Shown here one piece after another: positions 36,100-38,670 of a stretch of DNA of 38,670 nt (the first letter of the stretch is position 1; each line of letters starts with the position of its first letter). Source of the DNA: a virus. The notes under the pieces were generated by a model, which saw only the letters and a program-made list of their open reading frames with translations, was not told the DNA's origin and did not search any database. The stretch lies in the IMG/VR virus record IMGVR_UViG_3300045988_088524, positions 1-38,670 of that record; one strand, 5' to 3'. Both the position numbers and the translations under genes were made by a program.

Positions 36100-36507
36100 A
36101 TGAGAGGGGTGATAAATGTGATTATAGCGGTAGACTTTGACGGTATTCTCTGTGAAGATGCTTTCCCCGAAATAGGAAAACCGAAATACCCTGTCATTTC
36201 AGCTGTTCGGCAGCTAATAGACGCGGGACACGAAGTTATTTTGTGGACGTCAAGGGTAGACGAGAGATTAAAAGATGCCGTTAAATGGTGCTCAGATTAC
36301 GGTTTGTATTTCTGTGCCGTAAACGGTAACGCCCCCACCAATGTGCTGAAATACAGCACAGACCCGCGTAAAGTCTACGCAGATGTCTACATAGATGACC
36401 ACAGTTTGCTGTTTATGAGGGACCAGAGGCTTTATAAAAAACCTATAACAGCAATAGTAAATGAAATCAACTACGTATTAAAGAATGAAACACAGGAGGA
36501 AAACTAA
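36100..36507 (+). CDS. HAD-superfamily phosphatase (5'-nucleotidase-like)
   Basis: Motif I is AVDFDGI, motif II is ILWTSR and motif IV is YIDD. An alternative GTG start is at 36118. Confidence 0.7.
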   Translation: MRGVINVIIAVDFDGILCEDAFPEIGKPKYPVISAVRQLIDAGHEVILWTSRVDERLKDAVKWCSDYGLYFCAVNGNAPTNVLKYSTDPRKVYADVYIDDHSLLFMRDQRLYKKPITAIVNEINYVLKNETQEEN

Positions 36508-36508
36508 T

Positions 36509-37615
36509 ATGGAAAACACTACAAGAGGTAAGATGACCGCAGTAATCGGTGCGCAGTACGGCTCTGAGGGTAAGGGTGCAATTGTTCGCCACATCGCAAA
36601 TGACTATCAGGTACACGTTAGAGTCGGCAGCCCTAATGCAGGACATACCATTTACTGGAATGGTGAAAAGCACATCATGCAGTCTATCCCTTGTGGCTGG
36701 ATAAACCCCGATGCAATTATCATAATCGGCAGAGGTGCGCTGCTTAACATGAAGCAGCTTATGTCAGAGCTGGAGCACATCGAAAAATACTACCCCGATT
36801 TCAGGGAGCGTTTCTTCATTGATGCCGAGGCTGGTGTACTTGACGAAAAGTTTCATGAACAGGAGGGCGGCATTTATGGGGAGATGCACCGCAGAATAGG
36901 CTCCACCGGTGAGGGCGTTGGTCCTGCACGTGTAGCCCGCATCAATCGTGACCCCAAGCAGTTCCGCCTCTTTAAGGACGTGGCGGTGGAGTACGGGCTG
37001 ACGAAATGCAAGTTTATAAACACCCCCTATTTCATCGCAACTATGCAGGACAGCGGCAGTAATATACTGCTTGAGGGTACACAGGGTTCGGGTCTTTCAT
37101 TGCTGCATTCTCATTGGCCCTACTGCACCAGCATTGACACGAACGCAGCAGGCATCATGTCTGAGGTTGGCCTTGCCCCCTCAAGATTAACTGATGTACT
37201 GCTCGTGGCACGTACATTCCCCATCAGAGTTGCTGGTAACTCGGGTCCCATGGAGAACGAAACATCATGGGACGAAATCTCCGAACTGGTTGGTCACCCT
37301 GTAACAGAAAAGACTACTGTTACGAAGAAAACCCGTCGTGTAGCTTTTTGGGATGATGGAGTATTTGACGCAGCATGTATGCTGAATGCACCCACCGAAA
37401 TCGCACTGACATTTGCGGATTATGTTGACCCTGGTATTGCAAACGTCAGCGGTAAAATGGAAACACTTGAAATGCTGTCGAAGACGTATCCCAAAATCGT
37501 TAATTTTGTCAACACACGCTCCTCTACGTTAGCAGAAAAACTCAAGTACATTAGCACGGGCCCTGACTCGATAATTGAAATCAACAGGATAGGAGCTAAC
37601 ACAGATGGCGAGTAA
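36509..37615 (+). CDS. purZ: adenylosuccinate synthetase homologue, PurZ-like
   Basis: Contains VIGAQYGSEGKGA, SPNAGHT, IGSTGEGVGPA, LEGTQGSGLS, TRRVAFWD, TFAD and ISTGPD. 368 aa. RBS CAGGAGGA. Confidence 0.65.
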   Translation: MENTTRGKMTAVIGAQYGSEGKGAIVRHIANDYQVHVRVGSPNAGHTIYWNGEKHIMQSIPCGWINPDAIIIIGRGALLNMKQLMSELEHIEKYYPDFRERFFIDAEAGVLDEKFHEQEGGIYGEMHRRIGSTGEGVGPARVARINRDPKQFRLFKDVAVEYGLTKCKFINTPYFIATMQDSGSNILLEGTQGSGLSLLHSHWPYCTSIDTNAAGIMSEVGLAPSRLTDVLLVARTFPIRVAGNSGPMENETSWDEISELVGHPVTEKTTVTKKTRRVAFWDDGVFDAACMLNAPTEIALTFADYVDPGIANVSGKMETLEMLSKTYPKIVNFVNTRSSTLAEKLKYISTGPDSIIEINRIGANTDGE

Positions 37616-38045
37616 CGTAAAATACGTGGATTTTACCCTTGAGGCAGGTGCCCAGCGTCCCATCAAGAAGCATGCGGGCGATGCAGGTTGGGACTTATTC
37701 GTGAGCGAGAAATGCGTCATCAAACCTGGCGAAACAAAGGATGTTCACACGGGCGTGCGAATGAATATGCCGCCTTTCCTCTTCGCTCGCATTACGGGCA
37801 GGTCTTCGAGTCTTCGCAAGTACAACCTGCTCATCAACGAGGGGATAATAGATAACGGTTACACAGGCGAACTTTTCGTGTGCGCTCATAACCTCGGTAA
37901 CAAGACTATCGTCATCGAAAAAGGCATGAGAGTCGCTCAGGTACTTTTCCACACCATCGAAGATGTTCGGTGGTGCGAGGTTGAAGAACTAAAACCATCT
38001 CCCGACAAGCGCGGGGACGCAGGTTTCGGCAGCACTGGTAAATAA
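37605..38045 (+). CDS. dut: trimeric dUTPase
   Basis: All five motifs are present: DAGWDL, GRSS, GIIDNGYTGE, RVAQ and RGDAGFGSTG. Confidence 0.9.
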   Translation: MASNVKYVDFTLEAGAQRPIKKHAGDAGWDLFVSEKCVIKPGETKDVHTGVRMNMPPFLFARITGRSSSLRKYNLLINEGIIDNGYTGELFVCAHNLGNKTIVIEKGMRVAQVLFHTIEDVRWCEVEELKPSPDKRGDAGFGSTGK

Positions 38046-38141
38046 GCGTATAAGTAACATCGGGCTTGGGTAAGAGGACCTTGTAAGTAGTTGATAGCGA
38101 AACAATAACCCGACGTTAATCGAAAGGAGCAGGAGGATAAC

Positions 38142-38670
38142 ATGAAAAATTGTAAAGGATGTAATGAATTTATGTGCGATGCAAGCGGGACGGATAGTGT
38201 TTCGGAGTATTGTGGAAACACTGACAAGTCCACCCGCAACCCCACCGAACACAAGTTTGAAAGTTTCGGTACGGGGGCTATCCGCGAGGACAAGACAGGA
38301 AAGGGTAGATGCGACCTGCTTCCCGTGTGTGCTCTCATTCGCCTTTCCAAGAGGTTTGAAGAGGGCAACAAAGACCACCCTGAAAGAAATTGGGAGAACG
38401 GTATACCGATGCACAGTTTCTTAGACTCCGCACTCCGCCATCTGTTCCGCTATCTTGATGGACAGACAGACGAAGACCACCTTTGTGCGGCCGCATGGAA
38501 CGTTGTGTGCGCTATGTGGACAGAAGAAAAACGCCCCGAAATGCAGGACATACCCACTAGGCTTGACCATCCAGCAGACACGTCAAATGAGCCAAACACA
38601 ACACCCGAAGATGATAAATGTGAGTATTGGCTTGGCGAATCAAATCCCCGCTGCCTTAACACCAAAAAAG
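38142..38670 (+). CDS. dATP/dGTP diphosphohydrolase-domain (MazZ-like) protein, 5' part; continues at 76..155
   Basis: Contains GAIREDKTGKGRCDLLP..ALIRLSKRFEEG......RNWENGIPMHSFLDSALRHLFRYLDGQTDEDHLCAAAWNVVCAMW. RBS AGGAGGA. The full length is 202 aa. Confidence 0.7.
   Translation, partial: MKNCKGCNEFMCDASGTDSVSEYCGNTDKSTRNPTEHKFESFGTGAIREDKTGKGRCDLLPVCALIRLSKRFEEGNKDHPERNWENGIPMHSFLDSALRHLFRYLDGQTDEDHLCAAAWNVVCAMWTEEKRPEMQDIPTRLDHPADTSNEPNTTPEDDKCEYWLGESNPRCLNTKK
38596..38670 (+). repeat. 75-nt exact duplicate of bases 1-75 (circular closure overlap)
   Basis: The match is exact, and an ORF is continuous across the junction. Confidence 0.9.

Follow-up and report, generated by a model that had tools for sequence, protein, structure and literature searches.

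The right-hand end of the IMG/VR virus record IMGVR_UViG_3300045988_088524 (positions 1 to 38,670, analysed over its whole length of 38,670 nt and called the window below) raises the question of whether an uncultured gut phage replaces adenine in its DNA by 2-aminoadenine (Z). On the plus strand, the DNA polymerase gene polA is followed there by genes for a HAD-type phosphatase, a PurZ-like protein, a dUTPase-fold enzyme (Dut), a DUF5664 protein and a small nuclease, in that order. An initial annotation, made from the letters of the sequence, had mapped the last five of these as a head-to-tail array with overlaps of 11 nt (purZ-like/dut) and 8 nt (DUF5664/nuclease, ATGAGTAG), ending at a hairpin, and these coordinates were confirmed. 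It had also read the array as a Z-DNA pathway. This is the best reading of the locus, because the synthase homologue carries the PurZ signature and is accompanied by two genes of the deoxynucleoside triphosphate (dNTP) pyrophosphatase type, in a cassette conserved across hundreds of contigs. Judged from sequence, a probability of roughly 0.7 is given to the view that Z-DNA precursors are made by the cassette and that the virion carries Z-substituted DNA. The HAD-purZ-dut-DUF5664 segment is probably a Z precursor module of the PurZ0/DutZ type, carried by a large uncultured lineage of gut siphophages.

The PurZ-like protein and its candidate pyrophosphatase partners

The PurZ-like protein has the adenylosuccinate synthetase fold (PF00709, E 7e-51) and matched the PurZ family phrog_1211 with an E-value of 2e-69. 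Where PurA has its catalytic Asp13, 100% of phage PurZ and PurZ0 proteins have Ser (PMC12884076). Other positions that separate PurZ from PurA include W252, G256, P233 and P144, and two PurZ residues, F295 and Y298, bind the adenine of ATP (bioRxiv 10.1101/2025.10.22.683976). In the window protein, Ser19 stands at the Asp13 position, within the P-loop GAQYGSEGKG, and Trp254, Gly262, Pro238, Pro149, Phe302 and Tyr305 are the respective equivalents of the six other residues. All seven are of PurZ type, as are Thr269 and Tyr17, the latter as in S-2L; overall, the PurZ-type residue was present at 10 of 12 discriminating positions. The residues of the dGMP 2-amino pocket are present as well. Ser occupies the Asp13 position in all members of the window clade (24 loci, defined by PurZ at least 56% identical to that of the window) and in 76 of 76 IMG/VR relatives. 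The assignment as PurZ-like, already made in the initial annotation, is therefore borne out by the signature residues.

Several motifs are shared with PurZ0, namely the Ser-type P-loop (G-S-E-G/A-K-G), PIRVAGNSGP, TTVTKK and the Asp of the guanine motif. In contrast, the PurZ proteins of S-2L, phiVC8 and SH-Ab 15497 have GSTGKG where the window has GSEGKG. The donor-pocket motif T-F-A-D-Y is a hybrid, with Phe and Tyr as in PurZ and Asp as in PurZ0 and PurA; Tyr305 in particular is found in PurZ, whereas PurZ0 has Gln. The Asp of the 'T-K-L-D' guanine motif of PurA and PurZ0 is thus kept (as T-F-A-D), whereas the ATP-using PurZ enzymes have lost it. Because this Asp is kept, a GTP-type donor is predicted. 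PurZ0 itself reportedly uses GTP, as described by Tong et al. in 2023.

In a bootstrapped neighbour-joining tree, the window clade, PurZ, PurZ0 and metagenomic Ser-type sequences were separated from the PurA proteins of P. horikoshii and E. coli with 98% support. Identity to PurZ and PurZ0 was 28–34%: 28–30% to the PurZ of S-2L, phiVC8 and SH-Ab 15497, and 31–34% to PurZ0, from which the window protein is set apart on a separate deep branch. These features suggest that PurZ and PurZ0 are joined by a third lineage, one whose donor pocket is a hybrid and which, as far as the accessible literature goes, is newly described. No cultured relative with a PurZ more than 35% identical was found. PurZ matches labelled 'Listeria phage' were 6.7-kb unannotated fragments, at 27% identity.

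The Dut protein belongs to PF00692 (E 5e-27), scored 103.2 bits with TIGR00576 (cut-off 102.55) and keeps all five dUTPase motifs, I to V, with RGDAGFGSTG at its C-terminus. Among 1243 phage records with a Dut match, the best were almost all DutZ proteins of PurZ0 actinophages (Gordonia, Microbacterium and Arthrobacter phages, 42–46% identity), whereas the others did not exceed 39.5%. Two motifs, RSS[STA]LRK with a one-residue insertion and Y-x-GELF, are common to the window Dut, to all purZ-linked Duts and to the DutZ of Ghobes and Wayne. DutZ, which has the Dut fold, was shown experimentally to hydrolyse dATP and dGTP to the monophosphates, and all 98 PurZ0 genomes encode it (PMC12884076). 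We propose that the window Dut is DutZ-like, a pyrophosphatase of dATP and dGTP (and dUTP). The dUTPase had initially been placed outside the known pathway; this view is no longer tenable, since DutZ is an established partner of PurZ0 and is the nearest relative of the window Dut.

The DUF5664 protein scored 68.4 bits with PF18909 (cut-off 27, E 5.6e-19) and matched phrog_18716 and phrog_801, annotated 'dATP/dGTP pyrophosphohydrolase'. It is 29% identical (E 4e-9) to DUF5664-1 of phage Wayne, a proven dATP/dGTP/dUTP pyrophosphatase (PMC12884076), and its nearest deposited relatives are from Bacillus and Faecalibacterium phages. A role as dATP/dGTP pyrophosphohydrolase is proposed on this basis. 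The initial label of a MazZ-like pyrophosphatase agrees with the activity proven for members of the family, but not with the sequence comparison: BLAST gave no match to S-2L MazZ and a marginal one (E 0.08) to the DUF5664-DUF550 protein of SH-Ab. An AlphaFold2 (AF2) model was poor (mean predicted local distance difference test, pLDDT, 62.6), with a helical core at residues 60–135, and its fold search reached S-2L MazZ (7ODY) and Bacillus MazG (5IE9) only at E 3.6–8. Both termini of the protein (38142–38260 and 76–155) are rich in Cys, with CxxC...C...C at the N-terminus and C-x10-C...CxC...C at the C-terminus. These extensions, in which the model is poor, vary in length among relatives (proteins of 115–238 amino acids), and may be zinc-binding modules.

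The arrangement can be compared with the two types of characterised system. In the phages Ghobes, of Gordonia, and Wayne, of Arthrobacter, the PurZ0 system comprises PurZ0, DutZ (with or without DmtZ), DUF5664-1 and DpoZ-1 (PMC12884076). The window is similar in having a Dut-fold gene just downstream of purZ, a DUF5664 gene and a polA upstream. It differs in that a DmtZ/NDT domain is missing and a BT0820-type HAD gene lies directly upstream of purZ instead, in that its PolA is not DpoZ-1, and in that its DUF5664 is nearest to copies from Firmicutes phages, not to DUF5664-1. Moreover, the PurZ0 phages are soil actinophages, whereas the window clade consists of gut phages with a 40–67% G+C content. 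Like the S-2L triad and the systems of phiVC8 and SH-Ab 15497, the cassette combines a PurA paralogue for the Z precursor with candidate dATP-depleting, dGMP-supplying enzymes, clustered beside replication genes; a VRR-NUC gene and a PrimPol are found in S-2L as well. Unlike these three, the window has no DatZ (YfbR/HD_3), no MazG-type MazZ and no DUF550. The type of pathway is already known, and the Dut and DUF5664 components are explained by the PurZ0 systems.

Conservation of the cassette and the HAD phosphatase

A search of 5.8 billion proteins returned more than 120 clusters at 65–83% PurZ identity, on contigs of 35–48 kb, and an exhaustive HMMER scan, covering 1.84 billion cluster representatives, yielded 615 matches at E <= 1e-30. 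Among the best 150 of these 615 (representatives at 50% identity), in which only recognisable P-loops were scored, 127 had Ser, two had Gly and none had Asp. In IMG/VR, at least 558 viral contigs carry PurZ relatives. Metagenomic PurZ genes as such are not new: PurZ phages had already been predicted in large numbers from metagenomes, and Tong et al. (2023) reportedly list more than 2000 PurZ-bearing viruses.

Gene neighbourhoods, whose conservation had been suggested initially as a check, were surveyed by tblastn and profile hidden Markov models at 80 IMG/VR loci and on four other contigs. A same-strand dut accompanied the Ser-type purZ at 59 of the 80 IMG/VR loci, and in 56 of those it lay within 1.5 kb downstream. 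In the window clade, the HAD gene was present at 24 of 24 loci and dut and the DUF5664 gene at 23 each, the sole exception being a contig that ends 2 nt past purZ. The order polA-HAD-purZ-dut-DUF5664-nuclease is fixed in this clade, and the purZ-dut pair is conserved more widely. A more distant member (L010) keeps HAD-purZ-dut without DUF5664 and without the HD-domain gene found upstream of polA in the window. Outside the window clade dut stays, and HAD and DUF5664 are gone. The HD gene occurs at 14 of the 24 clade loci and is absent from the other 10. This pattern suggests that purZ-dut is an ancient core, that HAD and DUF5664 are clade-specific additions and that the HD gene is optional.

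Some Ser-type PurZ-like proteins are larger, with 490–750 amino acids (P0162, P0165, P0181, P0198, P0222, P0224, P0231, P0233, P0243, P0248, P0249, P0253, P0259, P0264 and P0267), and have an N-terminal domain of 160–210 residues that contains a Walker-A motif (G-x4-GKS/T). This domain resembles a kinase of nucleotides or nucleosides, and it could be a fused dZMP/dGMP kinase.

The HAD protein matched NF046079 (2e-28) with 99 bits, where 165 are required for an equivalog, and PDB 2OBB (BT0820) at 1e-15, as well as phrog_24386 and phrog_1238. With BT0820 it shares about 40% identity over 100 residues, the four HAD motifs and a small, capless architecture; the motifs, DxD (DFDG), T/S-x-R, K and D, are invariant in the 24 clade members. 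By sequence it is a relative of the BT0820 family and not an equivalog. At all 24 clade loci it lies directly upstream of purZ, and in this family such a fixed adjacency was seen in this clade only. HAD is the truly new component of the cassette. A literature search for the substrate of the BT0820 family found no paper. As a candidate DmtZ/NDT, the protein was rejected for want of any similarity.

Proposed pathway and alternative explanations

By homology with the enzymes described above, the Dut-fold and DUF5664 enzymes would hydrolyse dATP and dGTP to dAMP and dGMP, which would deplete dATP and supply dGMP. The PurZ-like protein would then condense dGMP with aspartate to N6-succino-2-amino-dAMP, probably at the expense of a guanine nucleotide. 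Host PurB and host kinases would complete the synthesis of dZTP, and the phage's own non-DpoZ PolA would incorporate it. More tentatively, HAD, which is translationally coupled to purZ, would dephosphorylate dAMP and so prevent its recycling. It would in this way stand in for DmtZ of the PurZ0 phages or DatZ of the PurZ phages, neither of which is present in the window. The initial annotation had seen a candidate for every role of the pathway. This was retained for the PurZ-like and DUF5664 proteins, to which Dut is now added, but not for the HD protein, which is not DatZ-like, nor for PolA, which is not a DpoZ.

Several observations weigh against Z-DNA synthesis. The PurZ-like protein scored 236.7 bits with the PurZ model NF038379, under the cut-off of 300, and slightly higher (249.4 bits) with the archaeal PurA model NF003295, whose cut-off of 368 was not reached either. 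Its best PDB sequence match is the P. horikoshii PurA. In the neighbour-joining tree, the window clade falls outside both characterised clades, PurZ and PurZ0, and the deep nodes have less than 30% support. No homologue of DmtZ, DatZ or MazZ was found anywhere in the window and, since DpoZ is missing as well, the completeness of an A-to-Z replacement is uncertain. Moreover, BT0820-type HAD, DUF5664 and HD proteins of this type are frequent in phages whose DNA is presumed to be ordinary (Lactobacillus phage LJ, Faecalibacterium phages FP_Epona and FP_oengus, a Bacillus phage), so that their presence alone is not diagnostic. The substrate of HAD, finally, is a guess, and PHROG and Pfam weakly link its fold to polynucleotide kinase 3'-phosphatases.

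The gaps in the enzyme set would be accounted for if dZTP were made and the genome were a mixture of A and Z, or if the pathway served some end other than full replacement, for instance to poison the host's replication or to escape particular defence nucleases. The lack of DatZ, DmtZ and DpoZ homologues, the canonical motif B of PolA and a large C5-cytosine methyltransferase, which suggests that other cover against restriction is still needed, all fit such a partial or conditional use. However, S-2L achieves complete Z substitution without DpoZ (PMC10201439), so that a non-DpoZ PolA is no argument against Z-DNA, and PurZ0 phages deplete dATP by DutZ alone (PMC12884076); the cassette itself offers two candidate pyrophosphatases and a phosphatase. 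We consider partial use unlikely. Still less probable, to the point of being very unlikely, is an ordinary nucleotide metabolism with normal ATGC DNA, in which a PurA-like enzyme boosts (d)AMP, Dut is a housekeeping dUTPase, and DUF5664 and HAD are generic sanitisers of the pool. The scores just given point that way, as do the raw matches, in which P. horikoshii PurA (163 bits) precedes the phage 'PurA-like' structure 7VF6 (148), phiVC8 PurZ (133) and S-2L PurZ (86). The archaeal enzyme (PDB 5K7X/2D7U) also has the short architecture of about 340–370 amino acids and the guanine-pocket Asp. In addition, Dut passes the generic dUTPase model with its five motifs intact, and HAD, DUF5664 and HD proteins are frequent in non-Z phages. 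Yet P. horikoshii PurA has the catalytic Asp (GDEGKG), with Trp for Tyr/Phe and Gly for Thr269, and it branches outside the Ser-type group, whereas the window protein has Ser in place of Asp13, as in all phage PurZ and PurZ0 (PMC12884076), and the pocket for dGMP's 2-amino group; no Asp-type sequence occurred among the best 150 cluster representatives. Dut is nearest to DutZ, and the purZ-dut linkage mirrors that of proven Z phages.

For the HAD gene taken by itself, the alternatives are closer. That it removes dAMP, and thus fills the place of DmtZ or DatZ, is speculative and should be taken as a tentative proposal. It is quite possible, if somewhat short of even odds, that it encodes a DNA-end 3'-phosphatase or some other accessory to the polymerase module, for repair or replication, inherited with the backbone and unrelated to Z chemistry. 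Weak matches to the phosphatase domain of polynucleotide kinase 3'-phosphatase (phrog_415, 2e-6; PF25109, E 0.1), the annotation of the FP_Epona homologue as polynucleotide kinase, the wide distribution of the BT0820-type family in non-Z phages and the position immediately after polA would agree with an accessory role. On the other hand, purZ starts 1 nt behind the HAD stop codon, with a ribosome-binding-site region in common, the adjacency to purZ is invariant in the clade and is kept in L010, which lacks DUF5664 and HD, and no other dAMP-removing enzyme is found in the clade.

A full account would have Z genomes, made through a third PurZ lineage, in a large and so far uncharacterised group of human and animal gut phages of Gram-positive anaerobes (Clostridia, or Collinsella for high-GC members), with HAD as a dAMP-specific nucleotidase and a non-DpoZ PolA that copes with dZTP; that all of this holds together is rather doubtful. 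Z-phage hosts in the accessible literature are only Pseudomonadota, Cyanobacteriota and Actinomycetota. Measured against that literature, the sequences point to novelty in the third PurZ lineage, the fixed HAD partner, the non-DpoZ polymerase, the lack of DatZ and DmtZ, and the likely Gram-positive gut hosts. If the proposal is true, Z-DNA phages would be frequent members of the human gut virome, infecting Gram-positive anaerobes, and virome methods based on restriction, as well as some enzymatic ones, would disfavour them. The HAD nucleotidase would then be a third independently recruited solution for adenine exclusion, beside DatZ and DmtZ, and would show once more that pool-editing enzymes are recruited convergently around PurZ. 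The BT0820 HAD family, with its solved structure, would gain a testable function, and a compact four-gene cassette (~2.6 kb) could be tried for Z-DNA in a Gram-positive chassis.

Neighbouring genes, genome layout and hosts

The HD protein had initially been cast as the dATP-removing enzyme of the Z pathway. This role is not supported. Its only Pfam match is the generic PF01966 (3e-8), PF12917 and PF13023 are not matched, and BLAST against three DatZ proteins (S-2L, phiVC8 and SH-Ab) showed no similarity. A confident AF2 model (pLDDT 85.5) had the exonuclease YhaM (9h3f) as its best fold match (E 1e-3, template modelling score 0.58), and neither DatZ nor YfbR was among the top 50. Homologues occur in Streptococcus phage Dp-1 (48% identical) and are common in Faecalibacterium and Lak phages. 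Given also its optional presence, with the gene missing from about 40% of the clade, the protein was rejected as a DatZ and is probably not part of the Z module.

Similarly, PolA did not qualify as the dedicated Z polymerase that it had been taken for. It scored 168 bits with the DpoZ_1 model NF038380 (cut-off 500) and 52 bits with DpoZ_2 (cut-off 350), and its motif B, RNAAKRINFSVIYG (...INFSVIYG), has Tyr at position B4, where DpoZ has Phe. It was rejected as a DpoZ on these two grounds, under-scoring on both NCBIfam models and lacking the motif-B Phe. No deposited phage PolA is more than 30% identical to it, and its gene always lies upstream of the cassette.

The small nuclease matched phrog_93 'endonuclease' (3e-12), and a PD...E-x-K motif is visible in its sequence. 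Homologues at 33–40% identity are annotated VRR-Nuc, nuclease or Holliday junction resolvase. No Pfam match was obtained even at E 10, nor any PDB sequence match, so that the initial name VRR-NUC is backed by the PHROG family and by annotated homologues, but not by the Pfam VRR_NUC domain. It is probably a recombination or replication gene, not one of nucleotide metabolism.

The polA-HAD spacer had been described as a structured leader. It does fold in the window (-34.6 kcal/mol, z = -2.5), its 5' part CUCUCCUGC pairing with GCAGGAGAG, which holds the HAD ribosome-binding site, and it may sequester that site. But the structure is not conserved: the consensus fold of eight relatives' spacers had only -1.55 kcal/mol, and spacer length ranges from -31 to 405 nt across the clade, the spacer being absent or overlapping in several members. 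No Rfam match and no promoter-like site on the plus strand were found for positions 35977–36099. A riboswitch or other conserved structure was rejected on account of the near-zero consensus fold, the variable length and the missing Rfam family. In the proposed scheme, the spacer, the HD protein and the small nuclease have no part in the chemistry.

The coordinates of all these features are collected in Table 1.

Table 1. Positions of the cassette genes and adjoining features in the window
Feature	Position	Strand	Basis
HD-domain protein	32286–32867	+	PF01966
Family A DNA polymerase with 3'-5' exonuclease domain (polA)	34207–35976	+	PF00476, PF01612
polA-HAD intergenic spacer ('leader')	35977–36099	+	folding, relatives' spacers
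BT0820-family HAD-type phosphatase, 135 amino acids	36100–36507	+	NF046079, PDB 2OBB
PurZ-type succino-2-amino-deoxyadenylate synthase homologue, 368 amino acids	36509–37615	+	PF00709, phrog_1211, signature residues
Trimeric dUTPase-fold DutZ-like enzyme (Dut), 146 amino acids	37605–38045	+	PF00692, TIGR00576
DUF5664 protein, first part (202 amino acids in all)	38142–38670	+	PF18909
DUF5664 protein, last part after the 75-nt duplication	76–155	+	junction-spanning open reading frame
Small PD-(D/E)xK nuclease, VRR-NUC-like, 100 amino acids	148–450	+	phrog_93, annotated homologues
G+C-rich hairpin between convergent genes	451–472	both	stem detection

Positions 1–75 and 38596–38670 of the window are an exact terminal direct repeat of 75 nt, of the kind that the assembly of a circular or a terminally redundant genome leaves behind. 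The circular assembly is thus 38,595 bp long, and reading an open reading frame across the junction is legitimate. The same 202-residue DUF5664 product was called on an independent 38,650-nt ENA contig, and an identical contig was assembled from sample SAMN03283276, probably of a human gut study. The start of purZ-like is almost certainly ATG 36509, which has AGGAGG 9 nt upstream and is also called in independent assemblies (P0001, 368 amino acids); ATG 36485 is unlikely. For HAD, an alternative GTG start at 36118 fits the 'MIIAVDFDG' N-termini of relatives. The hairpin, GAGCGGGGAGAAATCCCCGCTC, has a stem of 9–11 bp with seven G-C pairs, was detected on both strands and is likely a bidirectional terminator.

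The window has a G+C content of 48.9%. Its minus-strand genes are siphophage-like (terminase, SPP1-type portal, Mu-F-like head protein, tape measure, GH25 lysin), and a plus-strand replication block extends from about 20.8 kb to the junction. No integrase was found among the open reading frames scanned, and when 18.7 kb of the window were compared by megablast with 50,697 deposited phage records, no match was obtained.

Gut Clostridia (Bacillota) are plausible hosts, in line with the initial annotation, which called the host-type signals Firmicutes-like. The nearest cultured relatives of the portal infect Flavonifractor (40%), Butyrivibrio (39%) and Clostridium perfringens (~32%), closer portal matches come from human-faecal and lemur-gut viromes, and the lysis genes of relatives encode Phage_holin_4_1 and NlpC/P60 or glucosaminidase lysins. 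However, another host emerged for a high-GC clade member. A contig of the 'uncultured Collinsella sp.' metagenome-assembled genome HGM04145 (CAAGEH010000001.1; L011:1-12659) is a CRISPR array in which a 36-nt repeat, GTTTTGGAGCAGTGCCGATCTAACTGGTAATTAAAC, occurs 46 times. Ordinary spacers are 29–31 nt long, and ten 'spacers' of 200–2300 nt indicate a chimeric assembly through protospacers; one of these ten (L011:1889-2898, 1 kb, GC 70%) is a spliced-in purZ-dut fragment of a clade member. An integrated prophage was therefore rejected in favour of a CRISPR array with assembler-spliced phage fragments. Two normal spacers match the IMG/VR contig L025, at 9254–9282 (28/29) and 9784–9808 (24/25), and none matches the window itself. 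L025 has 67% GC and a PurZ 66% identical to that of the window. These matches link the high-GC clade members to Collinsella (Actinomycetota). Replication genes and Z cassette are syntenic over the whole GC range of the clade, 40–67% (L012-L032, L045, L054, L058, L001, L002), and so wide a range suggests several host taxa and repeated host jumps across phyla (Bacillota-like, Coriobacteriia).

Two further genes were noted in the replication blocks. In two relatives, L002 and L003, whose PurZ is 68% identical to that of the window, a radical-SAM gene that is absent from the window lies between the primase and a PD-(D/E)xK nuclease (3250–4101 in both). The window itself encodes, at 29340–31037 on the plus strand, the C5-cytosine DNA methyltransferase mentioned above, of 565 amino acids. 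It has a long central insertion with four T-D-G-K-x-x-x-L-[TS] repeats, which recall the target-recognition domains arranged in tandem in multispecific methyltransferases of Bacillus phages, and it would complement a Z-based protection of A/T-containing sites.

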